This document shows, in pieces, positions 9,086-50,856 of a stretch of 64,000 nt of DNA (positions are counted from its first letter, which is position 1; the number at the start of each line of letters is the position of its first letter). A program made the position numbers and the translations under genes. Below the pieces are notes generated by a model. That model was not told the DNA's origin and made no database searches. It was given only the letters and a program-made list of their open reading frames with translations. Where the stretch lies: positions 59,564-123,563 of the forward strand of contig CAZJFL010000002.1 of the NCBI GenBank assembly GCA_964545575.1, written 5' to 3'. Source of the stretch: an uncultured Planctomycetales bacterium. Its GTDB lineage: Bacteria > Omnitrophota > Gorgyraeia > Gygaellales > Profunditerraquicolaceae.

Positions 9086-9141
9086 GCGCATATAAGTTAT
9101 GTCGATTAACTAAGTAATAGCTATCTCCATAACTTATGCGC
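9086..9141. repeat. Family C hairpin element (GCGC/GGCC-ATATAAGTTATG ... CATAACTTAT-GCGC/GGCC)
   Basis: GCGCATATAAGTTATG-26 nt loop-CATAACTTATGCGC, between hup and dnaE. Confidence 0.8.
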
Positions 9142-9189
9142 TTACTTAACTATAATAACAGCAAAAACTTACGATGTCAAGAGGAAACT

Positions 9190-12100
9190 CTATATCACTA
9201 AAGATAATTTATCTTCGCCGAGAAGGTTTTCGATATCTTCGATTAATTTCTCCGAAGGAGCAACGTAAAACCCTTCCCCTACCACCAACTGGACGCGGGA
9301 TTTAGCCGGAGTATCCAGGTGCAAATAGATGGGCACGTTCCCGCGCGAAGTAGCTAGTAATCCTTTTAGGCTCTCAAAAAGGTTTTCTCTGGCGCCGGAT
9401 AGATTAATATTCAGGGCAGTGATTAATTTATAGACGTCCTCGACAGGGATTAAGTCATTGACGATGATTTTAGGGGTGTCTTCGCGTAAGGAAAGCCTGC
9501 CCCTGACCAGGACTACGGTATTAGGCTGGATATAGTGGGAGACTTTTTGAAACGCCGCTGGAAAGACGAGAAGTTCTACTATCCCCTCCAGGTCCTCTAA
9601 TTTTAAAATCGCCATTTTTTCCTGTTTTACGCGGGTCAGGGTCTGTTTGATTTTTGAGATCATCCCCACTATTTTTATTTCTTCTGCGTCGGTATGCTGG
9701 CTGAGTTTTGCGATTGAGGTAGAGGCAAAGCGTTTTAAGTGTTGGGCGTAGCGCGCCAAAGGGTGGCCGCTGACGTAAAAGCCGAGCATTTCTTTTTCAA
9801 AAGCGAGCAACTGCGGTTCAGGCCACTCTTTTATTTTGGTAAAACTTTCTTTTAAGCTTTGCTGGAATCCGTTCTGCTTTAATGCCTGATCAAAGAAAGA
9901 TAACTGCCCTTTAGACTGCTCTTTCTGCCTTTTGGAGGAAAGTTCTAATAACCTATCCAGGTTAACCGCCATCTGAGCCCGGGGCATAGTAAAGAAATCC
10001 AGGGCCCCGCATTTAATCAGGCTTTCCAGCACTTTCTTGTTCACTAATCTTAAGTCAATGCGCTGGCAGAGGTCTTCTAATGAGGCAAAGTGCCCCTTTG
10101 TTCTAGCCTGAATTATAGACTCCGCAGCTCCTCTGCCGACATTTTTTATTGCCAGGAGCCCGAAACGGATCTGTTTTTCATCCGCCGCCTTAAACAAGGC
10201 ATCGCTTTCGTTGATATCCGGAGGCAGCACCTGTATGCCCATGTGCGCGGCTTCATTTACGTATTCTACGATTTTGTCGGTATCGTTGCGTTCCGAGGTT
10301 AAGAGCGCGGTCATAAACTCTACAGGGAAATTAGCCTTTAGATATGCAGTGCGGTAAGAAATCAGGGCGTAGGCGGCGCTGTGTGATTTATTGAAGCCGT
10401 ACCCGCAGAAGTGTTCTATGAAATCGAAGGTTTTATTGGCGACGGATTCGCTGATGGCGCCTTTTACGCAGCCTAAGACAAAGTTTTTTCTTTGCTGCTC
10501 CATAACTTCCGGGATTTTCTTGCTCATTGCCCGGCGCAACAAATCTGCCTGGGTGAGGCTAAAACCGGCTAAGGAAGACGCAATCTGCATGACCTGTTCC
10601 TGATAGACCATGATGCCGTAAGTCTCCTTTAAAATCCCCTCGAGTTTTTTGTGGTCGTATCTAATCGGGGTGCGGCCGTGTTTACGCTGGATAAAATCAT
10701 CAAGCATGCCTGAGCCGATGGGCCCGGGGCGGTATAAAGCCAAAAGCGCGATCAGGTCTTCAAACCTCTCCGGCTCCAGTTTTTTCAGCAAATCGCGCAT
10801 CCCGGAACTCTCCACCTGAAATACTCCGCTGGTCTGGGCAGAGGCCAGGAGTTTATAGGTCTTGGGGTCATCCAGGGGAATGTCTTCAATATCAATGGTT
10901 TTGCCCCGCCTCTGCTTTACTATCTTTAAAGTCTGGTCTATCACGGTCAGGGTTCTTAAGCCCAGGAAATCAACTTTCAGCAGCCCGGTTTTTTCCAGCA
11001 TCGTCATGCTGTAACCGGTGGTGATCTGGTCGTCCTGAGTCTTAAATAAAGGCATATAATTATCCAGCGGCTTGTCCGCGATGACCACCCCTGCCGCATG
11101 CACCGAGGCGTGGCGGTTTAAGCCCTCCAGGGATAAAGCCGTATCAATCAGTTGTTTTATCTGCGGGTCGTTTTTATAGAGGCTCTTTAATTCCGCCTCG
11201 CTCTCTAAAGCATCTCTTAAGGTTATGCCCGGGTCAGGGGGGATCATTTTGGCAATCCGGTCCACATCGGCATAGCTTATCCCCATCACTCTTCCGACGT
11301 CCCTGACTACCGCGCGCGCCTGCATCGTCCCGAAAGTGATAATTTGCGCGACATTTTCCTGCCCGTATTTCTTAGTTACGTAATCGATGACCTCCTGCCT
11401 TCTTTCGTAACAGAAATCAATATCTATATCCGGCAGCCCCTGCCTCTGTGGATTCAGGAAGCGCTCGAATAATAAACCATAATTCAAAGGGTTGATATCG
11501 GTAATTCCTAAGAGGTAACTGACCAGGCTTCCCGCAGCCGAGCCCCGGCCGGGCCCCACCGGTATATTCTGGCTCTTAGCGTAATGGATAAAATCCCAGA
11601 CAATTAAAAAATAACTGGTAAAACCCATCTTCTGGATAGTTTCTAATTCGTGTTCCAGGCGCTGGGTGATCTCCGTGCTTAGTGTTTTGAAGCGTTCCTT
11701 TAATCCTTTTTCGCAAAGTTCCCGCAGGAACTCGTCTTTAGTTTTACCTACCGGGGCTTCGTATTTAGGCAGGTGCACTAAAGAGAAATCCAGCTCCAGG
11801 TTGCAGCGCTTAGCTACCTCTTGGGTATTAGCGATGGCTTCGGGAATCTCCTTAAAAAGTTCTTTCATCTCCTGAGGCGACTTAAAATAAAACTCATCGG
11901 TCTGAAAACGCATGCGGTTGGGGTCATCAAGGGTGGTCTGGGTCTGAATGCAGAGCAATGCCTCGTGGCTCCTGGCGTGCTCTTTTAAAAGATAGTGCAC
12001 GTCATTGGTGGCGATCAGGGGAATATTTAATTCTTTGGAGATTTTGATTAACCCCGCATTTACGGCCTTCTGTTCGGGGATTAAATTCTCCTGTACTTCT

Positions 12101-12627
12101 AAATAGAAATTATCTTTACCGAGAATATTCAGGAATTCGTCGGCTGCCTTAAGGGCGTCGTTAAAACGCCTCTCCTTAAGCAGCACCGGGATTTCCCCTT
12201 TAAGGCAAGCGCTCAGGGCAATCAAGCCTTTGGCGTACCGGGAAAGGATCTCTTTATCAATGCGCGGCCGGTAATAAAAACCTTCCAGATACCCGGCTGA
12301 AACCAGCTTCATCAGGTTTTGATAGCCGGTTTCATCCTTGGCTAAAAGGATCAAATGGTAAGAGGCTTCGTCAATCCCGCCCAGTTTTTTTTCCAGGCGG
12401 CTTCCCGGCGCAATGTATACTTCAGAGCCGATAATCGGTTTTATCCCGGCCTTCTGCGCCTCCAGATAAAAATCCATCGCCCCGAACATATTGCCGTGGT
12501 CGGTAATCGCCAGGGAATCCATTTTATAAGCTTGAGCCAGCTTAAGCAGGTCAGGTATGCGGCAGGCGCCGTCTAATAGGCTATATTGGGTGTGCAGGTG
12601 AAGGTGGATAAAATCGGAATGCGGCAT
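9190..12627 (-). CDS. dnaE: DNA polymerase III subunit alpha
   Basis: 1145 aa with N-terminal PHP domain (HLHLHTQYSLLDGA) and the polymerase core; length typical for DnaE. Confidence 0.95.
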   Translation of the reverse strand: MPHSDFIHLHLHTQYSLLDGACRIPDLLKLAQAYKMDSLAITDHGNMFGAMDFYLEAQKAGIKPIIGSEVYIAPGSRLEKKLGGIDEASYHLILLAKDETGYQNLMKLVSAGYLEGFYYRPRIDKEILSRYAKGLIALSACLKGEIPVLLKERRFNDALKAADEFLNILGKDNFYLEVQENLIPEQKAVNAGLIKISKELNIPLIATNDVHYLLKEHARSHEALLCIQTQTTLDDPNRMRFQTDEFYFKSPQEMKELFKEIPEAIANTQEVAKRCNLELDFSLVHLPKYEAPVGKTKDEFLRELCEKGLKERFKTLSTEITQRLEHELETIQKMGFTSYFLIVWDFIHYAKSQNIPVGPGRGSAAGSLVSYLLGITDINPLNYGLLFERFLNPQRQGLPDIDIDFCYERRQEVIDYVTKKYGQENVAQIITFGTMQARAVVRDVGRVMGISYADVDRIAKMIPPDPGITLRDALESEAELKSLYKNDPQIKQLIDTALSLEGLNRHASVHAAGVVIADKPLDNYMPLFKTQDDQITTGYSMTMLEKTGLLKVDFLGLRTLTVIDQTLKIVKQRRGKTIDIEDIPLDDPKTYKLLASAQTSGVFQVESSGMRDLLKKLEPERFEDLIALLALYRPGPIGSGMLDDFIQRKHGRTPIRYDHKKLEGILKETYGIMVYQEQVMQIASSLAGFSLTQADLLRRAMSKKIPEVMEQQRKNFVLGCVKGAISESVANKTFDFIEHFCGYGFNKSHSAAYALISYRTAYLKANFPVEFMTALLTSERNDTDKIVEYVNEAAHMGIQVLPPDINESDALFKAADEKQIRFGLLAIKNVGRGAAESIIQARTKGHFASLEDLCQRIDLRLVNKKVLESLIKCGALDFFTMPRAQMAVNLDRLLELSSKRQKEQSKGQLSFFDQALKQNGFQQSLKESFTKIKEWPEPQLLAFEKEMLGFYVSGHPLARYAQHLKRFASTSIAKLSQHTDAEEIKIVGMISKIKQTLTRVKQEKMAILKLEDLEGIVELLVFPAAFQKVSHYIQPNTVVLVRGRLSLREDTPKIIVNDLIPVEDVYKLITALNINLSGARENLFESLKGLLATSRGNVPIYLHLDTPAKSRVQLVVGEGFYVAPSEKLIEDIENLLGEDKLSLVI

Positions 12628-12632
12628 TTTGG

Positions 12633-12696
12633 CTTATCGCTTATCGCTTATCGCTTATCGTAGAACGATGTGCGATTTGCGATATGCGCTATGCGA
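12633..12696. repeat. Family B palindromic element, intergenic copy between dnaE and guaA
   Basis: GGCTTATCGCTTATCGCTTATCGCTTATCG-TAGAA-CGATGTGCGATTTGCGATATGCGCTATGCG. Confidence 0.85.
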
Positions 12697-12698
12697 GT

Positions 12699-14240
12699 TT
12701 ACTCCCATTCAATCGTTGCGGGCGGTTTTGAGGAGATATCGTAGACTACGCGATTTACGCCTTTGACTTCGTTAATCACGCGGTTAGCAATCTTCTCGAG
12801 GACTTCATAGGGGAGTTTTACCCAGTCGGCAGTCATGCCGTCGAGGCTGGAAACGCAGCGCAAGGCCGCCACATTTTCATAAGTACGTTCATCCCCCATC
12901 ACCCCCACACTTTTTATGGGCAGGAGTATGGCAAAAGATTGCCAGACCTGTTCGTAGAGCCCGGCGCCCCTGATTTCTTCGATCACGCGCTGATCTACTT
13001 CGCGCAGGATATTCAGGTATGGTTGTGTTACCTCTCCGATAATCCTGATCGCTAATCCCGGACCGGGAAACGGCTGGCGGCTGATGATCTGGTCCGGTAG
13101 GCCGAGCTCTCTGCCGATCTGGCGCACTTCGTCTTTGAATAATTCCCGTAAAGGTTCGACGAGTTTTAATTTCATCTGCGCCGGTAGGCCGCCTACATTA
13201 TGGTGGCTTTTGATGCGGCTGGAGGGCGCGCCGCTGGGAGAAAAAGATTCGATGACATCCGGATAAAGAGTCCCCTGCCCGAGGTATTTTACGCCTTTTA
13301 CTTTCTTGGCCTCTTCTTCAAATACCTTGATAAACTCTTCCCCGATAATTTTTCTCTTGTCTTCGGGGTCAGTGATGCCTTCCAGCCGGGTGAGGAATCG
13401 CTTGCTCCTGTCTACGTAATCCAGGTTTAAATGGAAATTATTACGGAAGACATTTTTTACCTGCTGCGGTTCATCTTTACGCAGCAGCCCGTTATCCACA
13501 AAGATGCACCTTAAGTTCCTGCCGATCGCTTTATGGATTAAGATTGCCGCGACCGAAGAATCAACCCCGCCGCTTAAGCCTAAGACCACCTTGTCGCGGC
13601 CGATAGTTTTTTTTAATCCGGCAATGGTTTCTTTGACAAAAGATTCCATGGTCCAGCGGCTGGTGCAGCCGCAGATTTTAAATAAAAAATTAGTTAAGAT
13701 CTGATTGCCTTTTTCCGTATGCGTTACTTCCGGATGGAATTGAACCGCATAAATCTTGCGCTGGCGGTTGCTGATCGCCATAATCGGGGTATTCAGCGTA
13801 TGGGCGGTGGTGCGAAAGCCGGGCGGAAGTTTGTTCACCAGGTCACCGTGGCTGGCCCAACAGGTAAAGTTACCCGGGATGTGGCCGAATAAATCGCGGT
13901 TATCGTCTAAAAATAACTCTACTTTGCCGTACTCGCGCTCTTTGGTGTGCTTGACTTTGCCGCCGAGCATTTCGGTGATTACCTGCATACCGTAACAGAT
14001 ACCCAAGACCGGTACGCCTAATTTAAATATGCCTTTATCGGGATACGGGCTTTTCTTTTCAGTTACCGATGCCGGCCCGCCGGAGAGAATTAACCCTTTG
14101 GGTGACATCGCGGCGATCTCTTTTGCCGGCATATTATAAGGTATGATTCTGGAGAACACTTTACTTACCCTGACGCGCCGGGCAATAAGCTGCGTATACT
14201 GCGAGCCGAAATCTAAAATAAGTATGGTTTGTCTGGTCAT
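12699..14240 (-). CDS. guaA: GMP synthase (glutamine-hydrolysing)
   Basis: 513 aa with a GATase1 domain, the ATP-PPase SGGVDSS motif and a C-terminal dimerisation domain ending in IEWE. Confidence 0.95.
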
Positions 14241-15397: not shown

Positions 15398-15529
15398 CTG
15401 CGTTCTCCTCTTCTTAAGTTATTATTTTTCAATGAGTTAAGGATTTTTACTCCAATTTTCGAGTTTACTGATAAAAGGATAGGCAATTTTACAATAAGAT
15501 TAGCCCTTTGTCAATAGCTATTTTAATGA

Positions 15530-15670
15530 GCACATAACTTACGGAAGCACTGGAAGTGCGACGTAAGTTATAAGTGCGAACTTACCCCGCACCGTAAAGG
15601 TGCGGGGTAAGTTCGGCCAAATAAGTTATGTCGCTGATATATTTAATATACAGCTCCATAACTTATGGCC
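15530..15670. repeat. Composite of three consecutive hairpins that include a Family C element
   Basis: Hairpin 1: GCACATAACTTACG...CGTAAGTTATAAGTGC. Hairpin 2: a perfect 16 bp hairpin, GAACTTACCCCGCACC-GTAAA-GGTGCGGGGTAAGTTC. Hairpin 3: GGCCAAATAAGTTATG-loop-CATAACTTATGGCC. All in the 347 bp guaB-groEL spacer. Confidence 0.8.
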
Positions 15671-15683
15671 TCACTTAAACAAA

Positions 15684-15716
15684 GAGGGGCGGGATTTTTC
15701 TCCCGCCCCTTTTTTA
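15684..15716 (-). terminator. Rho-independent terminator downstream of groEL
   Basis: Perfect GC-rich hairpin AGGGGCGGGA-loop-TCCCGCCCCT with T/A runs on both sides. Located immediately 3' of the groEL stop. Confidence 0.7.
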
Positions 15717-15744
15717 CTATGAACCCTGAACTCTAAAACCCTGT

Positions 15745-17382
15745 TTAATACATTCCTCCCATGCCCCCCATCCCGCCTCCCGGAGGCATCGCCGGCATTC
15801 TGTCTTCCTTTTCCGGTTTATCCGCGATGACTGTTTCGGTGGTAAGCAGAAGCGCTGCGATACTGGCAGCGTTCTGTAGAGCAGAGCGGGTGACCTTAGT
15901 GGGGTCAATTACGCCCGCTTCGATCATGTCCACATAGGCATCCTGATTGACATCGTAACCTACGTTAGTTTTTTCCTGCTTGATACGCTGCGCAACTACC
16001 GAACCCTCTAAGCCGGCGTTTTCCACAATCTGCCTTAAGGGCTCTTCAATCGCCCTTTTAACGATAATCACGCCTATTTTTTCGTCGCCTTCGAGCTTAA
16101 GCTTATCCAGGGCAGCCAGGGTCCTTACCAGCGCTACTCCGCCGCCGGGAACAATGCCTTCCTGGGAAGCTGCGCGGGTAGCATGCAACGCATCTTCTAC
16201 TCTGGCTTTCTTTTCTTTCATTTCTGTTTCGGTAGCCGCCCCGACATTGATTACCGCTACTCCGCCGGCAAGCTTTGCCAGCCTTTCCTGCAGTTTTTCT
16301 TTGTCGTAATCGGAATCGGTATCGTCTATCTGCTTCTTGATCTGGGCGATCCGGGCATTAATCGCCTGGCTCTTGCCTGCGCCTTCCACGATGGTCGTAT
16401 TTTCCTTATCCACTTTGACCCTTTTTGCGCGGCCCAAATCTTCGATATCGATATTTTCTAACTTTAAGCCCAAATCTTCGGTGATCGCCTTGCCGCTGGT
16501 AAGAACAGCAATATCATCAAGCATGGCTTTGCGTCTATCGCCGTAACCGGGAGCTTTTACTGCGCAGGCAACAAAGGTGCCGCGGAGTTTATTTACTACT
16601 AACGTCGCTAACGCTTCTCCCTCGACCTCTTCGGCAACAATCAAAAGCGACTTTCCGGTGCGGGCGATCTTCTCTAGTAACGGCAGGATATCTTTAATCG
16701 AAGATATTTTTTTCTCGTAAATCAGAATATAGGGTTCCTCTAAAAGAACCTCCATCCTTTCGGCGTCGGTGACAAAATAAGGGGATAGATACCCCTGGTC
16801 AAATTGCATCCCCTCTACGACATCCAGGGTAGTAGCAGTTGATTTTGCTTCTTCTACGGTGATTACGCCGTCCTTGCCCACCTTATCCATCGCTTCGGCG
16901 ATTAACTCTCCGATAGCGGTATCGGAATTTGCCGCGATAGAGGCGACCTGGGCTATCTCTTTTTTGTCTTTGATCGGGGTGGAAAGCTTGCTTAACTCTT
17001 CAATGACCTTAGCTACTGCTTTTTCGATCCCGCGCTTTAAAGCCATGGGATTGGCTCCGGCAGTGACGTTTTTCAAGCCTTCGCGGTAAATCGCCTCAGC
17101 CAGAATCGTGGCGGTGGTTGTTCCGTCGCCGGCGATATCAGAGGTTTTTTCCGCTACTTCTTTGACCATCTGCGCCCCCATATTCTCAAAAGGGTCCTCC
17201 AGGTCGATTTCTTTGGCTACGGTCACTCCGTCTTTAGTAATGGTTGGCGAACCGAACTTCTTATCTATTACTACGTTACGCCCCTTGGGCCCGAGAGTCA
17301 CCTTTACTGCTGCGGCGAGCTGCTCTACTCCGCTTAAGATCTTGCGGCGCGCCTCATCACTGTATAATAGTTGCTTTGCCAT
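15745..17382 (-). CDS. groL: Chaperonin GroEL
   Basis: 545 aa, canonical GroEL sequence with the C-terminal GGM repeat tail. Confidence 0.97.
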
Positions 17383-17408
17383 TCTTTCGCCTCCTTATTA
17401 GCTATGTT

Positions 17409-17477
17409 TGTGTCAAAGTGTCAGAGTATCAGGTATCAAAGTGCCATGACACCTTGACACTTTGATACTTTGACACC
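17409..17477. repeat. Family A palindromic element between groES and groEL
   Basis: GTGTCAAAGTGTCAGAGTATCAGGTATCAAAGTG...CACCTTGACACTTTGATACTTTGACAC. Confidence 0.8.
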
Positions 17478-17481
17478 GTTG

Positions 17482-17772: not shown

Positions 17773-17800
17773 AACTCACCCCCTCTAATAAATAGATTAA

Positions 17801-17827
17801 TTAGCACTCTTGATTTCAGAGTGCCAA
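17801..17827 (-). promoter_or_regulatory. CIRCE inverted repeat (HrcA operator) in the groES leader
   Basis: TTAGCACTC-N9-GAGTGCCAA matches the CIRCE consensus TTAGCACTC-N9-GAGTGCTAA. Lies between the predicted -10 box and the groES start. Confidence 0.85.
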
Positions 17828-19291: not shown

Positions 19292-19304
19292 AAGATTAAG
19301 GAAT

Positions 19305-19340
19305 GATAGTATCAAGGTATCAGGTGTCAAAGTATCATAG
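19305..19340. repeat. Family A element, partial or single-arm copy upstream of coaX
   Basis: TGATAGTATCAAGGTATCAGGTGTCAAAGTATCATA. Confidence 0.6.
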
Positions 19341-23959: not shown

Positions 23960-24026
23960 ATATCAAGGTATCAATGTGTCAATGTATCAAAAAACTTTGA
24001 TACTTTGATACATGACACTCTGATAC
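23960..24026. repeat. Family A palindromic element between yebC and rnpB
   Basis: ATATCAAGGTATCAATGTGTCAATGTATCAAAAAACTTTGATACTTTGATACATGACACTCTGATAC. Confidence 0.8.
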
Positions 24027-24036
24027 TTTTTTAAAA

Positions 24037-24433
24037 GGGGCAGGTAGAATAAGCCGAGTCTTGTCCGGAAACGATTATCCGTTGCCTGGTGATCATTCCT
24101 CTAAGTCCCCGATATTACCATCAGGGCTCAAGCAGCCTACCCGAGATTAGTGACGGGGCGGACAAGCCCCTCATCTCCTATTTGGCCTTGCTCGGCGTAG
24201 AGATTACCTCGTTTCACGTTGCCGCAAAAACGCAAAACGTCGGTAAAACGCAAAAATATTTTGCGCTTTTGCGTAAAAATTTTGCGTTTTTGCGGTTGCT
24301 CGTCTCTGTGGCTCTAAATCCTCTCCGGTTATGCGCCGGAGGGCGGGTATTACCCGCTACGCCTGTCCTCCTGAGCTCGGACTTTCCTCCCGCCATTGAT
24401 TCAGTGGCGGGCGACCACCTTCTACCTGCCCAG
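24037..24433 (-). ncRNA. rnpB: RNase P RNA (bacterial type A-like) with an expanded AT-rich P12-like helix
   Basis: The reverse strand contains GGAGGAAAGTCCGAGCTC and GGCCAAATAGG...GGGTAGGCTGCTTGAGCC...ACAAGACTCGGCTTAT. A P1 pairing of GGGCAGGTAGAA at the 5' end with TTCTACCTGCCC at the 3' end closes the molecule. Confidence 0.85.
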
Positions 24434-25736: not shown

Positions 25737-25742
25737 TGTATT

Positions 25743-25807
25743 CGCTTATCGCTTAGCGCATATTGCTTATCGTCCAAACGATATGCGATTAGCCATATGC
25801 GATATGC
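25743..25807. repeat. Family B palindromic element, intergenic copy between two tRNA genes
   Basis: CGCTTATCGCTTAGCGCATATTGCTTATCG-TCCAAA-CGATATGCGATTAGCCATATGCGATATGC. Confidence 0.8.
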
Positions 25808-34581: not shown

Positions 34582-35463
34582 TTAGATGACCTCTAAGCTT
34601 AAATCTACCGACTCCAGGGAATGGGTTAATTCGCCGATAGAAATAATATCTACCCCGCAGGAGGCGATTTTACGCACACTCTTTAAATCTACGCCGCCGG
34701 AGGTTTCTAGTTTAGTCCGAGGGTGGTGGCTGTTAAAGACAGTGTTATTTCTGATTTTTACCGCTTTTTTAATCTCGGCTAGGTCCATATTATCCAGCAT
34801 AATCACATCGGGTTTAAACCTGAGGGCATGCCTGAACTCATCGAGATTCTGTACTTCTATCTCTATTTTAAACCCTTTGGGCACGCTGGGCAGCCGGTCA
34901 TAACCTGCGGTGACTTTAATATGATTGTCCTTAATCAGAATCATCTCGTCTAAACCCATACGGTGATTGTATCCCCCGCCGATTCTTACGGCGTATTTCT
35001 GCAGTTCGCGCAGGCCAGGCATAGTTTTTCTGGTGTCGGTGATTTTTGTCTTATAGGGCTCTATCTTTCTGACGTATTCGCGGGTCTTAGTAGCCACTCC
35101 CGACATCATCGATATAAGATTAAGCGCTACTCTTTCTGCGGTTAAGATACTCCTGGCTTTTCCGGAAAGTTCGGTGATGATCTTGCCTTTTTGGGCAGGC
35201 TTGCCGTCTTTACTTAAGGGTTTAAAAGAAATGTCCTTATCTACCGCCTTAAACACGGCTTCGGCAACCTCCAGGCCGCAAATTATACAGTCTTCTCTGA
35301 CTAAAATTACGGCCTTAATCTCTTTATCTTCGGGAATAGTGAGCCGGGTAGTGATATCTCCTTTGCCGATATCCTCGATCAGCGCCTTGCGCACGATTAC
35401 TTCCAGCCTTGATTTTTCTATATGGGGAGCCGCATCCGAGAGAAAATATTTATCTAAAGCCAT
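34582..35463 (-). CDS. nadC: Nicotinate-nucleotide pyrophosphorylase (carboxylating)
   Basis: 293 aa, type II PRTase family pattern. Confidence 0.9.
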   Translation of the reverse strand: MALDKYFLSDAAPHIEKSRLEVIVRKALIEDIGKGDITTRLTIPEDKEIKAVILVREDCIICGLEVAEAVFKAVDKDISFKPLSKDGKPAQKGKIITELSGKARSILTAERVALNLISMMSGVATKTREYVRKIEPYKTKITDTRKTMPGLRELQKYAVRIGGGYNHRMGLDEMILIKDNHIKVTAGYDRLPSVPKGFKIEIEVQNLDEFRHALRFKPDVIMLDNMDLAEIKKAVKIRNNTVFNSHHPRTKLETSGGVDLKSVRKIASCGVDIISIGELTHSLESVDLSLEVI

Positions 35464-38299
35464 CTCTTGCCGCCTTTACTTTTTTTAAAGCTTCTTTTAG
35501 CTCCTCTAGTTTAGAGCTTTCTTTTGCTACGATCTCTTCCGGCGCCTTCTTTACAAACTCCTTATTCGCCAAAGTTTTTTCTTTGGCTTTTATTTCTGCT
35601 TCTACTTTAGCGATCCTGTCTTCTAGCTTAGCCTTTTCTTTTTCTATATCGATAACACCTTCTAGGGGAAGAGTGATATGCATGTCTTTGACAATAGCGC
35701 TGATACTGGATTTTATATGGGTATATTTTTGTTCTATATCGAGGCGGCTTAACTTAGCCAGTTTTTTGATCTGGGCAGACAGCCCGGAAACCAGTTCTCT
35801 TGTTTCCTTTGCTGCGCTTGAAATGATGGCGTTTATTTCCTCGTCCTGCGGGATATCCAGCTCCTGGCGCATATTTCTTATAGTGGTGATTGTCTCTAAA
35901 ATCAAGCTCATCCTCTCTTCTAATTTCTTATCGATTATTTGCTCCTGGATGTGCGGCGAGGGCTGAATGCTGATGGATTTCCCTTGATGAGGAAGCGCCT
36001 GCCAGACCTCTTCGCTAATAAAGGGCATAAAAGGATGGATTGCGCGCAGGAACTTTTCCAGCACCTTGTACATGACTACTTGGATTTGCGGATTTTTAAT
36101 ATCTGATTTAATCATCTCCAGGTACCAGTCGCAGAACTCATGCCAGAAGAAGCCGTATAAAAGGTTTGCCGCTTCGTTAAAACGGTAAGCCGCCAAATTA
36201 TTATTTACTTGCTTAAGCGTAGAATAAAATCTGCTTAAAATCCAGCGGTTAACTAAGCCAAATCCTTTATAAGGGGCTGTCCCCGCAGAAGGCGGGGCAC
36301 CAAACCATTCCCGCAAAGGCGGGACACCGACGCATCCTTTAGCGTCGGGTGCAGGTTTGGGTGCCTCCGTAATACCAAGATTCATCAGGATAAACCGGGA
36401 GGCGTTCCAGATTTTGTTGGCAAAGTTCCTTCCCTGTTCAAATCTTTCTTTGGAAAGATGCACATCCTGGCCCTGGGCCGTGATTGCAATCAGGCTGAAA
36501 CGCAGAGCATCGGCGCCGTATTCATTAATAATGTCCAGCGGGTCAATGATATTGCCCAGCGACTTGGACATCTTTTTGCCTTCGATATCGCGCACTGTGC
36601 CGTGGATATAGACATCCTTAAAGGGTATCTCTTTCATGAATTCCAGGCCCGCCATGATCATGCGCGCCACCCAGAAGAAAATGATTTCCGGAGCAGTAAC
36701 CAGAACCGAGGTAGGGTAAAAATAAGCTAAATCTTTTTGCTTATCGCTTATCGCTAATCGCTTATCGTCTTGCACGATATGCGATATGCGATATGCGCTA
36801 TGCTCGAATGGCCAGTAAAAGACCGCAAACGGCCACAGCCAGGAAGAAAACCAGGTATCCAGCACGTCTTCGTCCTGATAGATATCAGTCGAGCCGCAAT
36901 GTGGACACTTGTCGGGTTTAATTCTGGAAACTATAACTCCCTCCTGCTTATCGCTTATCGCTAATCGCTTATTGGCCTTTTGCGATATGCGATATGCGAT
37001 ATGCGATATGCAGTTCTTACAATAATAAACCGGCAACCTGTGCCCCCACCAGATCTGGCGCGAGATGCACCATTCTTGAATATTCTCCATCCAGTCCAAA
37101 TATACCTTAGTCCAGCGCTGCGGATAGAATTTAATTTTACCCTTTTTAACTGCCTCTATCGCCGGTTTTGCCAGCGACTGCATCTTCACAAACCATTGTT
37201 TGGATAAATACGGCTCAATAATGGTGTGGCAACGGTAACAATGGCCTGCGGATAACGGATGAGGTTCGACTTTTTCTAGCAATCCTTTTTCCTTTAAATC
37301 CTCCAGAATTACTTCCCGCGCCTGGAATCTATCCATATCTTTATAATCACCGGCAAACTCATTCATGCGTCCGTCAGGATGCATCACGTTGATAAACTCC
37401 AGCTTATGTTTCTTTCCTAAAAGATAGTCATTAGGATCGTGCGCCGGAGTTACCTTAACCGCACCTGTGCCAAATTTCATATCCACCAGGCTATCGGCAA
37501 TGATTTTTATCTGCCGGTTGATCAATGGTAAAATCAGGATTTTACCGACGAGTTTTTTATAGCGTTTATCTTTGGGGTTGACCGCAACGGCTGTATCTCC
37601 GAGCATGGTTTCCGGACGTGTAGTCGCTACTACGACATGATCAGGGACAGTCCCCTTCAGGGACAGTCCCTGTGCTTCCTTTAGCGGATACCTCAAGTAA
37701 TATAAATTTCCCTGCAATTCGTGGTGTGGCGCCTCTTCGTCAGAAAGGGCAGTCTGGCAGCGCGGGCACCAGTTGATGATGTAGCTGCCTCTATAAATCA
37801 GGCCCTTCTCGTATAATCTGACAAAAACTTCAATCACAGCTTGAGAGTATTCTTCATCCATGGTAAAGCGCGTACGCGACCAGTCGCAGGAAACACCTAG
37901 CTTCTTTAACTGATGAATTATAGTTACACCGTATTGCTCCTTCCATTGCCAGACCCGCGCAATGAATTTTTCCCGGCCTAAGTCCTGACGCTTCAGTCCT
38001 TCTTTGGCGATCGCCTTTTCTACCACATTTTGCGTAGCGATTCCGGCGTGGTCAGTTCCCGGCATCCAGAGGGATTCTTCGCCTTGCATGCGGTGATAAC
38101 GGATAAGGATATCCTGAATAGTGTTATTCAGGGCGTGTCCCATATGCAGAATCCCGGTAACATTTGGCGGCGGGATGACTATAGAGAAAGGCTTTTTTGC
38201 AGGGTCTGCTTTTGCGGCAAAAAGATTATTCTCTTCCCAGAATTTGTACCACTTCTCTTCGGTTTCCTTAGGGCTATATCGAGTAGGTATTTCATTCAT
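35450..38299 (-). CDS. valS: Valine--tRNA ligase carrying two in-frame palindromic-repeat insertions
   Basis: 949 aa class I aaRS with HIGH (ILHMGHALN), WCISRQ, the zinc knuckle CKNC...CPHCGS and KMSKS. Two ~66 bp repeat copies encode the extra peptides ...SHIAYRISQKANKRLAISDKQEG... and ...HSAYRISHIVQDDKRLAISDKQKD... Confidence 0.95.
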   Translation of the reverse strand: MNEIPTRYSPKETEEKWYKFWEENNLFAAKADPAKKPFSIVIPPPNVTGILHMGHALNNTIQDILIRYHRMQGEESLWMPGTDHAGIATQNVVEKAIAKEGLKRQDLGREKFIARVWQWKEQYGVTIIHQLKKLGVSCDWSRTRFTMDEEYSQAVIEVFVRLYEKGLIYRGSYIINWCPRCQTALSDEEAPHHELQGNLYYLRYPLKEAQGLSLKGTVPDHVVVATTRPETMLGDTAVAVNPKDKRYKKLVGKILILPLINRQIKIIADSLVDMKFGTGAVKVTPAHDPNDYLLGKKHKLEFINVMHPDGRMNEFAGDYKDMDRFQAREVILEDLKEKGLLEKVEPHPLSAGHCYRCHTIIEPYLSKQWFVKMQSLAKPAIEAVKKGKIKFYPQRWTKVYLDWMENIQEWCISRQIWWGHRLPVYYCKNCISHIAYRISQKANKRLAISDKQEGVIVSRIKPDKCPHCGSTDIYQDEDVLDTWFSSWLWPFAVFYWPFEHSAYRISHIVQDDKRLAISDKQKDLAYFYPTSVLVTAPEIIFFWVARMIMAGLEFMKEIPFKDVYIHGTVRDIEGKKMSKSLGNIIDPLDIINEYGADALRFSLIAITAQGQDVHLSKERFEQGRNFANKIWNASRFILMNLGITEAPKPAPDAKGCVGVPPLREWFGAPPSAGTAPYKGFGLVNRWILSRFYSTLKQVNNNLAAYRFNEAANLLYGFFWHEFCDWYLEMIKSDIKNPQIQVVMYKVLEKFLRAIHPFMPFISEEVWQALPHQGKSISIQPSPHIQEQIIDKKLEERMSLILETITTIRNMRQELDIPQDEEINAIISSAAKETRELVSGLSAQIKKLAKLSRLDIEQKYTHIKSSISAIVKDMHITLPLEGVIDIEKEKAKLEDRIAKVEAEIKAKEKTLANKEFVKKAPEEIVAKESSKLEELKEALKKVKAARDGFR
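36740..36804. repeat. Family B palindromic element (CTTATCG)n-loop-(CGATATG)n, copy inside valS
   Basis: GCTTATCGCTTATCGCTAATCGCTTATCG-TCTTGCA-CGATATGCGATATGCGATATGCGCTATGC. In frame in valS. Confidence 0.9.
36948..37012. repeat. Family B palindromic element, second copy inside valS
   Basis: GCTTATCGCTTATCGCTAATCGCTTATTGGCCTTTTGCGATATGCGATATGCGATATGCGATATGC. In frame in valS. Confidence 0.9.
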
Positions 38300-44787: not shown

Positions 44788-44804
44788 TTTAAGTAACTAG
44801 TAAA

Positions 44805-45434: not shown

Positions 45435-45437
45435 GTA

Positions 45438-46505: not shown

Positions 46506-47797
46506 AGTTCTTCCATCCTTATCGCTACCGACTTCTGCTTAATCACTTCCAGACGGTTAATGATGGAGAGCGCATCGCGCAAATCCTTCTCCTTTGCCTG
46601 ATGGATGATCATCACTATCGGCACGATGTCGCCTTTATTCCTTTCCTTCTGGGTCACCGAAGCGATACTAATCCCGTATTTGGCCAGGACCCCGGATATT
46701 TTAGCTAATACGCCGGGCTTATCCTGAGCCATAAAACGGATATAATAACGGCTTTCGGATTCGTGGATACGCCGCAGTTTCTTGATAGATTTATCCACGG
46801 TGATGTTTAGCGTCGGCCTGAATAATCCCGCGGTGATCCCCTGAGCCAATCCCACTAAATCCGAGACTACGCCTGAGGCGGCCGAAAGCTGCCCTGCCCC
46901 GGGGCCGTAGAATAACAAATCTCCGGCCAGATCGCTTGATACATAGATAGCATTAAATACGCCGCCTACGGATGATAAAAGATGGCCTTTGGCTATCAGC
47001 GTGGGATGGACCCTGACCTCTAATTCACTGCCTTCTTTTTTGGCTATCGCTAGCAGTTTGATTTCAAAACCCAATTCTTTGGCGTAATTAACGTCTGCCA
47101 GAGAAATCTGCGCTATCCCCTCAATAAATATATCGTCCAGGGCCACTAACCTTCCGAAACACAAATAAGTAAGCAGGATCAATTTATGCGCCGAATCTAT
47201 ACCCTCGATGTCTAAAGTCGGATCTTTTTCCGCAAAGCCCTTCTTCTGCGCCTGACGCAGGGCATCGCCAAAGGTGTAATTCTTGGCGGACATCTCGGAT
47301 AAAACAAAATTAGAAGTGCCGTTTACTATGCCGAAGATACTATAAAAATTATTAGCGACCAAGCCTTCGCGCAAAGACTTGATAATCGGGATGCCTGCTG
47401 CGACGGAGGCTTCAAAATAAATACTCTTGCCCCGGTCCCGAGCAAGCGCAAACAGCTCGGCGCCCTTCTCTGCCAGGAGCGCTTTATTGGCGGTGACGAC
47501 GCTTTTACCCTTTTTTAATGCCTCGGCTATATATTCTCTGGCCGGATGTATCCCGCCGATCAACTCCACGATAATATCTATCTGCGGGTCGTTGATCACT
47601 ACCCCCGCATCCTTAGTCAGCAGGCTTTTATCAACGGCCACATTCCTCTTAGAACTTAAATCCTGGTCACAGATCTTCTTTACAACTATCTCTAAGCCCG
47701 TCTTTTCGCTTAAAACAGCTTTTTTCTCCCGCAATATCCTGACTACGCCGGAACCGACATTGCCGAACCCGATCAAGCCAATGTTGATCTTTCTCAT
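46502..47797 (-). CDS. hom: Homoserine dehydrogenase
   Basis: 431 aa, N-terminal NAD-binding [12 protein letters not shown], catalytic domain, C-terminal ACT domain. Confidence 0.92.
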
Positions 47798-47800
47798 AAA

Positions 47801-48154
47801 TTATCCTTTCTTCAGATAATACTCTATGGTATCGGTCATTACTTTTCTATGGTTTTCATCTACCGCTAAAAACTGCAGCCGGGTGTCATAAATCAGGGCT
47901 TTGGTGATTTCGCGCGAGTCGACGACCCTGCCGATGACCATAATCGGATGCGGGTCAAAGGGAAGCCGTATTTCTAAGGCCAGGTTCGTTCCCGGGCTAA
48001 ACTGCTTATTTGTGGTCAGGAGCATGCCGCCTAAACTTAAGTTTTTGGTCTGCGAGATGTCGATACTGTTATTTTCTTCCAGCATCCGGTAGGAAACGAT
48101 AAAACGGGCAGATATCCGCGGATGTTTTCTTCTTTCCAGCCCTGAGTAACCCAT
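47801..48154 (-). CDS. PilZ domain protein (c-di-GMP receptor family)
   Basis: 117 aa, RRKHPR and DISQTKNLSLGG motifs (RxxxR ... DxSxxG). Confidence 0.8.
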   Translation of the reverse strand: MGYSGLERRKHPRISARFIVSYRMLEENNSIDISQTKNLSLGGMLLTTNKQFSPGTNLALEIRLPFDPHPIMVIGRVVDSREITKALIYDTRLQFLAVDENHRKVMTDTIEYYLKKG

Positions 48155-48197
48155 CTCGACCTCCTTTTTATAGCCTCTTTAAATTCAATTTATCACA

Positions 48198-48268
48198 AGC
48201 GAGCGATCGGAATCGAACCGACATATATAGCTTGGAAGGCTATTGTTCTACCATTGAACTACGCTCGC
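48198..48268 (-). tRNA. tRNA-Gly (anticodon TCC)
   Basis: Manual fold: GCGAGCG acceptor, anticodon loop CTTCCAA, T-loop TTCGATT. Confidence 0.85.
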
Positions 48269-48287
48269 ATCGTTGCTTGAATCCCGT

Positions 48288-49277
48288 TTACTCCTCTTTC
48301 TTCCGGCGCGTCATTAAATCTTTCACTACTTTTTCCGGAGATTTATTTTTATAGAGAACGCCGTAGACTTCCCTGGTAATAGGCATTTCTACTTTATATT
48401 TTAAACTTAACCTATAGGCTGATTGCGTAGTAGGTACCCCCTCTGCTACCATCTGCATATTTCTTTTGACCCCGGCCAAAGATTTACCCTTGCCAATCTG
48501 TTCTCCTACAAACCTGTTTCTGCTATAAGGGCTGATGCAAGTAGTAACTAAATCTCCCAACCCGCTAATGCCGCTAAAGGTGCTGACTTTAGCCCCCATC
48601 GCCCTGCCGAGCCGGGAAATCTCCGCCAGGCCCCTGGATAAGAGAGCGGCTTTAGTGTTGGTGCCGAAACCAAAACCGTCGGATATCCCGCAGGCGATAG
48701 CAATAATATTTTTCAGGCTGCCGCCTAACTCTACCCCGATTACATCATCATTGGTATAAATCCTGAACCTTTCAGTCATAAAAATATCCTGCAGTATTTT
48801 TCTGGTTGCTTTATCATGAGCAGCAACCACGGCGGTAGTAGGTATGCCTTTGGCTACTTCATGGGCTATAGTGGGCCCGGAAAGCACGGCGAATCTTACC
48901 TGTCCTAACTCGCTGTGTATAACCTCGGACATCCTCTTTAAAGTTCCCATCTCGATGCCCTTAGTAACGCTTAAGTATATCGCTCCTTTGGGATACCCGA
49001 GTCTCTTTATCTTTCTTAAGACGCCGCGCATATGTTGCGAAGGCGCGGCAAGAATGACGAGGTCTCTTCCGTCTAATACTTCTTTTAACTTATGGGTAAT
49101 TTTTATCTCTTTGGGTATTTTAATCCCGGGTAAAAACCTGATGTTAATCCTTTTTTTATCGAGATACCCGGCGTAACCGCCGAAAGCCCCCCAGAGCGCG
49201 ACCGGAAAACCCTTATTACTTAAAAGTATTGCCAGGGCCGTGCCCCAACCCCCGTCGCCTAAAACAGCTATTTTCAT
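48288..49277 (-). CDS. gpsA: NAD(P)H-dependent glycerol-3-phosphate dehydrogenase
   Basis: Start trimmed to the internal Met (MKIAVLGDGGWGTALA). The longer track ORF adds a K/R-rich extension that overlaps the upstream gene in another frame. Confidence 0.9.
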   Translation of the reverse strand: MKIAVLGDGGWGTALAILLSNKGFPVALWGAFGGYAGYLDKKRINIRFLPGIKIPKEIKITHKLKEVLDGRDLVILAAPSQHMRGVLRKIKRLGYPKGAIYLSVTKGIEMGTLKRMSEVIHSELGQVRFAVLSGPTIAHEVAKGIPTTAVVAAHDKATRKILQDIFMTERFRIYTNDDVIGVELGGSLKNIIAIACGISDGFGFGTNTKAALLSRGLAEISRLGRAMGAKVSTFSGISGLGDLVTTCISPYSRNRFVGEQIGKGKSLAGVKRNMQMVAEGVPTTQSAYRLSLKYKVEMPITREVYGVLYKNKSPEKVVKDLMTRRKKEE

Positions 49278-49281
49278 CAGC

Positions 49282-49791
49282 TTAAGCCTCTTCCTCTTCT
49301 TCTTCTTTTTCTGCTGCGCTTTCTTCCGGAGCCTCACCCGCCTCCAATTCTCCCTGCGGCTCCTCCTCTTGTTCCTCTTCTGGCTCCAGGCTTTCATTTT
49401 CCATTTTAAGGAAATGTATTTTAGGGTAAATATGCGTCAGGTTCTTTTCTTCGCGGGTCAAAAACTGGATGCCGGCATCGTAACTACCGTCTGCCTTATG
49501 CTCGCTCCTGACCACTTTCCCGATGATTCCGCTTTGATAGATGAAACTTCTTTTTTCCAGGCCCTCGCAGATCAATAACGTTGCCCGGTCAAAGGAAAGC
49601 CAGACTATCTCGCCTTTCTTAGGCTTATATTTTATGTTGCAGAGCAATCCCGCTTCGCTGATGTCAGCGGTGTAGCCTTTCAGGAGTTTAGAAAGAGTTT
49701 TTTTCTTGCATACTTTATAAGCCAGGGGCGTCACATAATCTAACCTGACGAACTTGCGGCGCTCCGACCCTTTGTAAACGGTTTTTTTCAT
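49282..49791 (-). CDS. PilZ domain protein with acidic poly-Glu C-terminal tail
   Basis: 169 aa, SERRKFVR and DISEAGL PilZ motifs. The C-terminus is EEEQEEEPQGELEAGEAPEESAAEKEEEEEEA. Confidence 0.75.
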   Translation of the reverse strand: MKKTVYKGSERRKFVRLDYVTPLAYKVCKKKTLSKLLKGYTADISEAGLLCNIKYKPKKGEIVWLSFDRATLLICEGLEKRSFIYQSGIIGKVVRSEHKADGSYDAGIQFLTREEKNLTHIYPKIHFLKMENESLEPEEEQEEEPQGELEAGEAPEESAAEKEEEEEEA

Positions 49792-49795
49792 CTCT

Positions 49796-50545
49796 TCATC
49801 CTATTCTGATGTTGGGTTTATTAGTCCTAATTTTAGCCAGATCCCAGCTGTAATCATAAAGGTGTAAACCTTTGCTTACGGCGATAATTTCTCCGTCCCC
49901 GACCCCTATCTCATCTGCCATATATTGTTTGACTAATTGCAGCCCGCCCAAATTAGAAGGGAAACCGCCCCAGAGGTCCCAAGAACGAAAGTACAAAATA
50001 AAATGCAACTTACCATAACGCACTCTTGTATCTATGATTCTTAGGCACGGCGGATCGGCCAAAGTAATATCCGAAGGCATGCCGATCTCCATAATCGCTT
50101 GGTTTGTCCCGGACCCCTTCTCTTTGTAAATCTTGATTACTTCTTCTATCTGGTTTACCTCCAAAGGCATCTCCTTGACCATCTCTTTGCCTTGCGCCTT
50201 GTGTTTTATTCTTACTTTCGGGTCTACCAGCCTTTCTCCGTAAGTATAATCTTCGGTTTCCGTTTTTGCCCCGGTCAGGAGATAACTTAAATAACCCTGG
50301 ATATAATTCATATCCGTCGGCGCCGGGATACTCATTCCTTCCGGAATAATAGGAATAATCTGATGCGCGGGCTTTTTTACCCGCACCACGGCAAAATCGA
50401 ATTCCAGGCGCTTCTGCCCTTCGTAGCTGCCGCGGGTTATGGTATAGACGTAGCCTTTTTCCAGTATTCCACAGAGGCACTGAAACCAGGCATCGTCCAG
50501 ATCAAAGGCGTCAATAAAAACAGGTTCTAAAAATTCTCTTTCCAA
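49796..50545 (-). CDS. thyA: Thymidylate synthase family protein (short, divergent ThyA-like)
   Basis: 249 aa. Aligns to the ThyA core: PPCLRIIDTRV / LHFILYFRSWDLWGGFPSNLGGLQLVKQYMA matches PPCHxxFQFYV / LSCQLYQRSxDxFLGVPFNIASYALLxHMxA. Confidence 0.6.
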   Translation of the reverse strand: MEREFLEPVFIDAFDLDDAWFQCLCGILEKGYVYTITRGSYEGQKRLEFDFAVVRVKKPAHQIIPIIPEGMSIPAPTDMNYIQGYLSYLLTGAKTETEDYTYGERLVDPKVRIKHKAQGKEMVKEMPLEVNQIEEVIKIYKEKGSGTNQAIMEIGMPSDITLADPPCLRIIDTRVRYGKLHFILYFRSWDLWGGFPSNLGGLQLVKQYMADEIGVGDGEIIAVSKGLHLYDYSWDLAKIRTNKPNIRIG

Positions 50546-50565
50546 TAAAATCTCCTAAAATTAAG

Positions 50566-50643
50566 TGGTCGGGGAGGTGGGACTTGAACCCACGGCCTTT
50601 TGAACCCCATTCAAACGCGCTAGCCAAACTGCGCTACTCCCCG
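50566..50643 (-). tRNA. tRNA-Pro (anticodon GGG), CCA encoded
   Basis: Manual fold: CGGGGAG acceptor, anticodon loop ATGGGGT, T-loop TTCAAGT, 3' CCA. Confidence 0.78.
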
Positions 50644-50791
50644 GGAAACAATTTATCAAATGTGGTATGCACTCCGCTTAATTCTCCCGCTCTAACTTGT
50701 CGGAGAATTACACCGTGCGAAGCACGGTGCTGCGAAGATGCTTATTTATGTTGCCCCGAGCGAGAGATTAACCTAAAAACATATTCGCTCG

Positions 50792-50856
50792 GTGTAAATT
50801 CGGCCATATAACTTACGTCGCCGCGGCTTGCTACATCGGCTCCGTAAGTTATGGCC
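50792..50856. repeat. Family C hairpin element between tRNA-Pro and tRNA-Tyr
   Basis: GGCCATATAACTTACG-loop-CGTAAGTTATGGCC with the same flanks (TTCGGCC ... CTCAtTTA) as the other copies. Confidence 0.8.

Follow-up and report, generated by a model that had tools for sequence, protein, structure and literature searches.

A family of mosaic palindromic repeats at gene ends in Omnitrophota chromosomes, apparently of the REP, BIME and MITE kind

The DNA considered here is a stretch of 64,000 nucleotides (64 kb; the window, in what follows) from an uncultured Omnitrophota bacterium (contig CAZJFL010000002.1, positions 59,564 to 123,563), and its subject is a repeated hairpin, here called E, which stands in the spacers between genes of the window. 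Omnitrophota is a widespread and almost entirely uncultured phylum, and occurrences of the GroEL protein encoded in the window were found only on metagenomic contigs. A first-pass annotation of the letters had described three hairpin copies, and these are confirmed: the pattern ATAASTTAYG-N(20-34)-CRTAASTTAT matches the plus strand at 9092-9137, 15621-15666 and 50808-50852, against an expectation of 0 from 100 shuffles. A covariance model together with a repeat finder showed that the window holds four copies of E, not three, with scores of 66-88 bits (Table 1), and the covariance model run with its filters off detected no further copy in the 64 kb. The additional copy is what had been taken for a variant hairpin (at about 15533-15572), which is a full inverted E copy (copy 4). 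Taken over many genomes, E makes up what is apparently an undescribed family of palindromic mosaic repeats, found widely in Omnitrophota and of the kind of the repetitive extragenic palindromes (REPs), the bacterial interspersed mosaic elements (BIMEs) and the miniature inverted-repeat transposable elements (MITEs).

The four copies occupy three sites. Copy 1 lies between dnaE (9190-12627, minus strand) and a gene of the HU family (8759-9040, minus strand), and on the transcribed minus strand it takes the form with GA loops. Judged by the promoter-like site beside it, the start of transcription is predicted to fall within the first bases of the hairpin, and copy 1 would then be the 5'-terminal hairpin of the HU mRNA; the orthologous spacer at another locus (L039; loci are numbered with the prefix L) retains both promoter and element, and a hairpin of the M1 type, which adjoins copy 1, was found again in a listing of flanks at L078 and L023. 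Copies 4 and 2 form a pair between the groEL terminator and the promoter match of an IMPDH-family gene. Copy 3, all three stems of which carry compensatory changes relative to copies 1 and 2, lies within a tRNA cluster, its tail abutting the 3' end of tRNA-Tyr. Every long open reading frame (ORF) and all seven tRNA genes of the window are on the minus strand, an extreme gene-strand bias, and GC skew is negative in 16 of 16 segments of 4 kb.

Table 1. Copies of E and adjoining features in the 64-kb window, with members of the branched sub-family at other loci
Feature	Locus	Position	Strand	Remarks
Hairpin M1, head side of copy 1	window	9062-9078		CCCCGCC-TTT-GGCAGGG; ends in the GGG preceding copy 1
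E copy 1	window	9076-9148	+	G-type stem ATAAGTTATG, 26-nt apical part; 79.0 bits, E 1.3e-21
Promoter-like site by copy 1	window	9152-9180	-	TTGACA-17-TATTAT with TG, 11/12 matches; directly upstream of copy 1 in the mRNA sense
Promoter-like site, IMPDH-family gene	window	15486-15514	-	TTGACA-17-TAAAAT, 11/12 matches; begins 8 nt after the tail of copy 4
E copy 4	window	15523-15587	-	C-type stem ATAACTTACG, short apical hairpin; 66.5 bits, E 1e-17; promoter-side member of the pair
Joint hairpin M2	window	15585-15607		CCCCGCACC-GTAAA-GGTGCGGGG; built where the 5' flanks of copies 4 and 2 face each other
E copy 2	window	15605-15677	+	G-type, 26-nt AT-rich apical hairpin; 87.7 bits, E 2.5e-24; terminator-side member of the head-to-head pair
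Intrinsic terminator of groEL	window	15685-15710	-	10-bp GC stem and T-run; the composite starts 7 nt past the stem
Hairpin M3, head side of copy 3	window	50756-50792		CCGAGCGA-N21-TCGCTCGG
E copy 3	window	50792-50863	+	C-type, 25-nt GC-rich apical part; 75.6 bits, E 1.5e-20
tRNA-Tyr(GTA)	window	50864-50946	-	discriminator base 50864, then the first minus-strand base of copy 3, 50863
Branched sub-family member	L020	143-214
Branched sub-family member	L059	1705-1775
Branched sub-family member	L090	7607-7678
Branched sub-family member	L081	5353-5420
Branched sub-family member	L085	6463-6546

The E unit is a rod-like hairpin of about 60-85 nt with three covarying stems of 5, 4 and 10 base pairs (bp). 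Read 5' to 3', it opens with GG(G/A), followed by a 5-bp outer stem (TAAGT/ACTTA), a 2x2 internal loop of TC facing TC, a 4-bp stem (GNNC), a 2-nt bulge on the 5' side, the 10-bp stem ATAA-S-TTA-Y-G, a second TC/TC loop and a variable apical stem-loop; a short GC-rich hairpin, M, usually stands on the 5' side, which we call the head. Near-invariant are the 10-bp stem and the TC/TC loops. The sequences TTCGGCC and CTCAcTTA, which had been recorded as flanks shared by the copies, are indeed shared, but folding shows them to be two further stems of the E hairpin and not flanks. In an alignment of 122 distinct copies, with shuffles and slid pairings as controls, 95% of cells pair compared with 82% in shuffles, 415 cells carry double changes compared with 134 in shuffles, and the slid controls all pair at 48% or less. 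Position 5 of the 10-bp stem (stem 3) is G-C in 64 copies and C-G in 58, position 9 is U-A in 92 and C-G in 29, one pair of the 4-bp stem (stem 2) occurs as A-U (55), G-C (36) and C-G (23), and one pair of the outer stem (stem 1) as A-U (61) and G-C (55). Of these parts, the search pattern prescribed the inner loops and eight stem 3 positions, whereas the outer TC/TC loop, the GG(G/A) head and stems 1 and 2 were left free; the two sides of the outer loop nevertheless read TC in 109 and 119 of 126 copies. The GA/GA loops that the opposite strand presents were also considered as a k-turn, a reading ruled out by inspection: the 2-nt bulge lies 4 bp from the tandem GA.

It had further been suggested that a long conserved loop might serve as a recognition site for protein or RNA, and this is not borne out. 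In the window the loops measure 25-26 nt in the three plus-strand copies and 18 nt in the fourth, and all four have in common only the first and last three bases (TCG...CTC), which are the internal TC/TC loop and its closing G-C pair; the remainder of each loop folds into a variable stem of its own. Over all copies the apical part is the most variable region, ranging from about 10 to 130 nt. It takes one of two forms, a short hairpin of 11 nt or a longer, AT-rich one that has a loose consensus of its own, and at times other repeats are nested in it; such variability does not support the loop as a conserved site of recognition. At three loci (L032, 3496-3598; L096, 806-954; L027, 3295-3420) the nested repeats are GC-rich hairpins (for example CTTGCCGCA..GCGGCA..CCGAGC..GCTCGG), some of them duplicated, and the apex of E appears to be a preferred landing site for other hairpin repeats. 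A sub-family of E carries an extra small hairpin (GGCC-TTAC-GGCC-like) at the 2-nt bulge and so takes a branched form (Table 1); a motif like the Shine-Dalgarno (SD) sequence (AGGAGG, AGGAGC or GAGAGG) follows directly after its tail at four of the five loci, the exception being L020.

Copies of E are arranged in a characteristic manner. Where two copies lie within 300 nt of each other (n = 56), 50 pairs are head-to-head, 2 tail-to-tail and 4 in tandem; the head-to-head gaps range from 12 to 256 nt with a median of about 45, and 100 of the 212 copies recovered in all (see below) belong to such pairs, 31 of the 50 combining a G-type with a C-type unit. The facing flanks (CCC... and ...GGG) make a joint hairpin M between the two units, giving a block of inverted E, M and E. 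A few M types recur across genomes, among them CCCTTGACATTT, CCCCACACCAATT, CCCAGCACTAATT, CCCCTCACTCAG and CCCGCC-N3-GGCGGG, several again with TC/TC mismatches. The triple hairpin first noticed in the spacer at groEL is a standard composite of this family: the perfect 16-bp GC-rich hairpin at its centre is real and consists of M2 with the outer stems of copies 4 and 2, and the block 15518-15682 (165 nt) folds as a three-armed cloverleaf closed by a stem of the two tails, with a z-score of about -14 under DNA and RNA parameters alike. The notion of a composite insertion therefore holds, since the block is absent from four relatives as described below, but that of three separate elements does not, the composite being two inverted E copies and their joint. 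In a rare arrangement at L010 (4531-4773), three copies of the same orientation follow one another with a 92-nt period, the first two with truncated tails.

The distribution of E extends far beyond the window. The core ATAASTTAYGTCG-N(10-35)-YCCRTAASTTATG was sought in species-representative genomes and matched at least 119 stretches from at least 78 assemblies, counted by accession prefix. Nearly all carriers among the matches listed are labelled Candidatus Omnitrophota or Omnitrophica or bear the automated label "Planctomycetales", one of them being a single-cell genome, and their habitats include groundwater, lake sediment, deep mines, peat and the Black Sea. When the covariance model was run on the window and on 119 loci (902 kb in total), it identified 212 copies of E at about 35 bits or more, with up to 6 per 8-kb locus compared with 4 in the 64-kb window; an nhmmer profile was less sensitive (2 of the 6 copies at L057) and was dropped. 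The motif is thus not limited to the three sites from which it was first described. Between loci that carry the element, orthologous proteins are at most 97% and at least about 45% identical, and the persistence of the same core despite the latter value means that it spans deep divergence. No match to the core pattern was found in viral contigs, so that there is no sign of a phage origin. In the window, only the tRNAs and the RNase P RNA reach an Rfam gathering threshold, and a permissive Rfam scan of 15400-15760 gave only sub-threshold chance matches, the best at 25.9 bits against a cut-off of 97; a full-text literature search turned up no description of Omnitrophota repeats. One 2-kb contig binned as "Methanobacteriota archaeon" (L055, JAHIFK010000021.1) carries a perfect head-to-head E pair (1653-1723, minus strand; 1765-1826, plus strand) and is probably a mis-binned Omnitrophota contig.

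Comparison of relatives reveals that E comes and goes at individual sites. We took six contigs encoding a GroEL 91-94% identical to that of the window, regardless of their content of elements. Four of the six keep the junction of groEL with the IMPDH-family gene, and not one of these four has the composite of about 160 bp; in the remaining two, groEL is followed by other genes. The composite-free relatives have a terminator of GC hairpin and T-run at the same place with a different sequence, and the promoter motif TTGACA-N17-TAAAAT/TAGAAT is present in L124, L125, L126 and L129. L126 alone carries M and E in the spacer between groES and groEL, which there measures 122 nt compared with 17-36 nt in the others, and the tail abuts AAGGAGG. 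Among 283 orthologous spacer pairs, 200 are empty in both species, 65 are filled in one and 18 in both, so that 65 of the 83 occupied pairs are filled in one species only; where both are filled, the two may be of different type, as with a C-type unit with short apex in L071 and a G-type unit with long apex in L061. In the empty partners the two genes often overlap or all but touch (spacers of -20 to +15 nt). L016 and L008, whose flanking proteins are 97-98% identical, differ by one clean indel of 79 nt that corresponds exactly to M and E, with no more than a TAA microhomology, displaced by 1 nt; other filled and empty pairs are too diverged for such a judgement. The TAA/TTAA found at both ends of composites was considered as a target duplication and rejected, as it is explained by the outer stem, which covaries within each unit.

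Within the spacers, E is placed with great precision. None of the 212 copies lies inside an ORF, and all stand in AT-rich junctions outside coding sequence. Stop and start codons were counted at 154 copies with co-directional neighbour genes, 75 of which present the GA loops on the mRNA strand (opposite copies) and 79 the reverse (same copies). In 46 of the 75 opposite copies the upstream gene ends inside the element, its stop codon (TAA in 32, TGA in 11) lying in the first 7 nt; the reversed tail reads TAAGTGA or TAAATGA, and in many cases TAAGTGA itself provides the stop. An SD-like motif follows within 14 nt in 23 of the 79 same copies (immediately, after the last base pair, in 15), the background of the motif being 9%, and a further 35 have an ATG within 5 nt and no SD, giving start signals at 58 of 79; ortholog comparison confirms several of these ATGs as true starts. 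The earlier suspicion of a link to tRNA genes is likewise well founded, for in three species the element begins right after the discriminator base with a gap of 0 nt, namely at tRNA-Tyr in the window, tRNA-Lys at L015 and tRNA-Gly at L087. One rule covers all these cases: the tail points to the gene and the head to the centre of the spacer. This exact abutment arises largely because the empty spacers are so short, the inserted block becoming the whole of the spacer. The two types are also distributed by position, with 49 G-type and 23 C-type units among opposite copies and 64 C-type and 11 G-type among same copies (Fisher p 2e-11), and along the direction of the genes a G-type first and C-type second occur in 21 pairs and the reverse in 3.

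If these hairpins were selected in mRNA, mismatches compatible with G.U pairing would be expected to lie on the transcribed strand and to flip between the two orientation classes. No such flip is seen: G.T and A.C mismatches number 32 and 15 in same copies and 33 and 20 in opposite copies (Fisher p 0.67), indicating that the wobbles, which in the three basal stems account for only about 1-2% of the pairs, are independent of the direction of transcription; the TC strand does show an excess of G.T of about 2:1, though in the apical stem only, where it may reflect a bias of the alignment. Together with the apparently untranscribed site 2 and the dispensability of the element in close relatives, this result argues for a structure-dependent repeat at the level of DNA. 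In addition, stems that covary around invariant unpaired bases suggest that it is a folded single strand that is recognized, rather than duplex terminal repeats. On balance, therefore, we think it probable that E is a non-autonomous, structure-dependent mobile interspersed palindrome of Omnitrophota chromosomes, similar to REPs and BIMEs. E would spread and be lost as DNA, probably through a folded single-stranded intermediate known by its shape, its TC/TC loops and its 10-bp stem to an enzyme encoded elsewhere. When transcribed, the insert would close on itself and leave the neighbouring stop, SD and start signals usable, which may be what allows it to persist within operons, behind terminators, at the 5' ends of transcripts and after tRNAs; where a block has come to lie between an ancestral SD and its ATG, as exemplified by L107 compared with L087 (GAGGAG ... 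184 nt ... ATG), the closed fold would rejoin the two. As REPs are known as mRNA-stabilizing hairpins, a secondary use of E as a 3' or 5' stabilizing hairpin is possible by analogy.

Several observations weigh against a mobile palindrome. No clear target-site duplication was seen in the filled and empty pairs compared, and none of the indels is polarized, so that every apparent gain could be a precise loss. The loci were picked for containing a copy, and their gene calls are simple longest-ORF calls. A core that is identical in genomes with about 45-60% protein identity suggests that a conserved partner has constrained it over a long time, and this might just as well be a host function; both the nucleotide-exact junctions at tRNA ends and start codons and the 21:3 polarity of G-type and C-type units with respect to transcription would also fit selection on the transcript. 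Among 985 ORFs near copies (0.9 Mb only), phmmer with approximate queries for the IS200 TnpA and the Escherichia coli RAYT gave no match to Y1/HUH transposases below E 0.3. An autonomous version, that is, a gene bracketed by copies with their tails outward, was not convincingly found within the 8-kb loci: only three tail-outward pairs enclose more than 300 nt (gaps of 364, 3137 and 7193 nt), and the enclosed ORFs gave no Y1-transposase match with these approximate queries.

The transcript figures most directly in the strongest alternative, in which E punctuates RNA. The transcribed hairpin would be recognized by a conserved protein that binds RNA or by a conserved nuclease, either one like RNase III or an endonuclease dedicated to hairpins, and cutting or protection at its base would yield tRNA 3' ends, upstream mRNAs protected at their 3' ends and downstream mRNAs with short leaders or none, by analogy with the intercistronic RNase III sites of phage T7. 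The start of the element exactly after the discriminator base of three different tRNAs, the stop codons in its first bases, the SD-like motifs and ATGs directly behind it, the order of G-type and C-type units along transcription and the predicted place of copy 1 at the 5' end of the HU mRNA would all suit such a role, as would the conserved internal loops, which on the opposite strand read as tandem GA/GA, a common protein-binding motif of RNA. However, the strand that enters the mRNA differs between the two orientation classes, one presenting GA and the other UC loops, and a single RNA-binding protein could not read both; moreover, the wobble asymmetry takes no account of the transcribed strand, site 2 lies behind a terminator and ahead of the next promoter, orthologous junctions function without the element in close relatives, and exact abutment is also what block insertion into a spacer of 0-10 nt would produce. 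We consider RNA punctuation unlikely, though worth taking seriously. A broader idea, quite unlikely in our estimation, is that E is more than selfish DNA and forms the cis half of a lineage-wide system in which a conserved Omnitrophota protein reads the rod hairpin through its 10-bp stem and tandem TC/TC or GA/GA loops and marks gene boundaries; it would either cut or protect transcripts at the hairpin base, producing tRNA 3' ends and mRNAs that are leaderless or start with an SD, or move the hairpin as single-stranded DNA, the covarying outer stem guiding it to AT-rich targets such as TAA stops.

A role in chromosome organization seems to us very unlikely. Copies of E would here be duplex or cruciform sites for a protein such as gyrase, IHF/HU or an SMC-like protein, as has been proposed for BIMEs, and be kept for nucleoid structure rather than through mobility. 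Two unit types alternating in orientation with linker motifs do parallel the organization of BIMEs, placement is strictly extragenic, and strand-independent, almost purely Watson-Crick pairing suits a constraint on DNA; yet a reader of the duplex would conserve sequence, whereas free covariation is seen in stems 1 and 2 and at two positions of stem 3, and G-type and C-type units coexist within one genome, and the frequent presence or absence in close relatives does not agree with a required role at given positions. It is hardly credible that these sequence-conserved hairpins lacking a U-tract act as special terminators or attenuators: many do lie directly at the 3' ends of genes and tRNAs and are very stable, but no T-run follows the element, its head side runs into M hairpins rich in GGG/CCC, a terminator scan of site 2 called only the separate canonical hairpin of groEL (Table 1) that already precedes the element, half of the copies have the opposite orientation and stand shortly before start codons, and many lie within operons whose downstream genes must be expressed. 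Least credible of all is a set of independent small-RNA genes or a cis-regulatory RNA motif such as a riboswitch or leader, as strong covariation and conservation across many species are here accompanied by no Rfam family at threshold, no conserved associated promoter or terminator, unrelated neighbour genes in both orientations, gain and loss between relatives and a freely variable apical part that accepts nested repeats.

The window contains other palindromic repeats besides E. The valS gene (ORF 35450-38299, minus strand) carries two in-frame copies of a different repeat, (GCTTATC)n ... (GATATGC)n with a periodic T.T mismatch. In comparison with the ValRS of Thermus thermophilus (1gax), the copy at 36734-36803 appears as a clean insertion of 21 residues (query 501-520); where the copy at 36941-37011 lies, the alignment is gapped and the protein longer by about 14 residues (query 433-455). 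A similar peptide (AYRIS...KRLAISDKQ) is encoded by the two copies, which flank the zinc-finger segment. The same heptamer palindromes also occur between genes, at 12627-12694 (from the guaA stop to the dnaE start) and at 25739-25807 (between tRNA-Val and tRNA-Met). A third family, with copies at 1088-1166, 17403-17476, 19302-19337 and 23966-24027, forms long hairpins from GTGTCAAAG and GTATCAAAG octamers and their complements; one copy fills the spacer between groES and groEL, another adjoins the RNase P RNA gene (24036-24429), and its word TGTCAAGG is also the stem of the commonest type of joint hairpin (CCCTTGACA...TGTCAAGGG) linking E pairs in other genomes. Finally, an inverted repeat of TAAACCC- and TAAATCC-like heptamers (58674-58699 and 58765-58790), in a spacer between two minus-strand ORFs, may be another periodic-hairpin repeat of the window.

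A repeat that is defined by sequence and served by a working covariance model provides a taxonomic marker for the binning of Omnitrophota contigs, and E may help to explain breaks between contigs in the metagenome-assembled genomes of this phylum. It also calls for caution in gene calling, as the repeat donates stop codons and start codons stand directly behind the hairpin. The combination of one core at about 50% protein identity with rapid gain and loss at individual sites implies a conserved partner enzyme. Furthermore, judging from the sequences, insertions that part the SD from the start codon by 80-190 nt and yet close on themselves may constitute a natural test of translation initiation bridged by structure.

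Among known repeat systems, the closest match to E is that of REPs and BIMEs, repeats of Enterobacteria and Pseudomonas that are mobilized by the Y1 transposases called RAYTs. E resembles them as a short imperfect palindrome that is strictly extragenic, multi-copy and co-transcribed, with covarying stems; as a mosaic of two unit types (compare Y and Z) in alternating inverted orientation with recurring linker motifs; and in lying often a few nucleotides from stop codons with no clear target-site duplication. However, with its three stems, its pair of invariant TC/TC loops and an apical hairpin that varies, the E unit is roughly double the length of theirs. Two superfamilies of REPs are defined by terminal GTAG or CGTC tags (PMC3733652). 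E has neither tag at its ends, its consensus starting with GG(G/A)-TAAGT and ending with TCACTTA or TCATTAA, and CGTC occurs only internally, in variants with C at the Y position. In contrast to REPs and BIMEs, which are species- or genus-specific, its core is common to at least 78 species-level genomes of a phylum, and no RAYT (PF01797) was found near copies with the approximate queries among the 985 ORFs.

E likewise shares features with MITEs such as the Correia elements of Neisseria (CREE/NEMIS) and with the pneumococcal BOX and RUP repeats, which are non-coding units of 60-260 bp with long inverted ends that differ in presence between relatives, insert beside or within operons and are transcribed into stable hairpins, and its modular build recalls the A-B-C modules of BOX; every E unit, and every head-to-head block with its M, is itself an inverted repeat within this range of 60-260 bp. 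Unlike in MITEs, no TA or other duplication was seen, no parent insertion sequence with the same ends was found in the 8-kb loci, and the outermost bases vary and covary while the internal stem and loops are conserved, the reverse of terminal repeats bound by a transposase. The ends of IS200/IS605 elements, which transpose as single strands by "peel and paste", and the palindrome-associated elements derived from them offer a parallel in this respect, as in both cases a folded single strand with mismatches or bulges would be recognized, and recognition of this kind explains covarying stems with invariant unpaired bases; lack of a clear target duplication and insertion beside a short AT-rich word are further likenesses, and by analogy one may speculate that the 5-bp outer stem plays the part of a guide-target pair. 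In contrast to IS200/IS605, no TnpA or TnpB was detected near copies in what was a weak search, and no conserved tetra- or pentanucleotide stands outside the element. Integron attC sites were considered and rejected, because GTTCGG and GTTATG do not fit GTTRRRY (the inverse core sought being RYYYAAC) and the copies flank housekeeping genes in both orientations instead of standing uniformly oriented behind cassettes that lack promoters; a reading as DNA uptake sequences was ruled out on motif and context.

Like the RNase III hairpins of phage T7, copies of E are sequence-related, have internal loops and stand exactly between cistrons, a likeness drawn from sequence alone; through processing of the T7 type the upstream RNA comes to end in a 3' hairpin and the downstream RNA to begin with a short leader. 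Unlike the T7 hairpins, E occurs in both orientations and also in apparently untranscribed spacers, and it is dispensable in close relatives. As palindromic repeats spread through a streamlined genome, copies of E are also comparable to the Rickettsia palindromic elements, which do enter genes, whereas E is never found inside an ORF; it is the in-frame repeats of valS in the window that resemble them in this regard. What is unusual in E is the combination of a conserved three-tier hairpin, polar head-to-head pairs of two types that close as a cloverleaf, and nucleotide-exact placement at stops, starts and tRNA ends.

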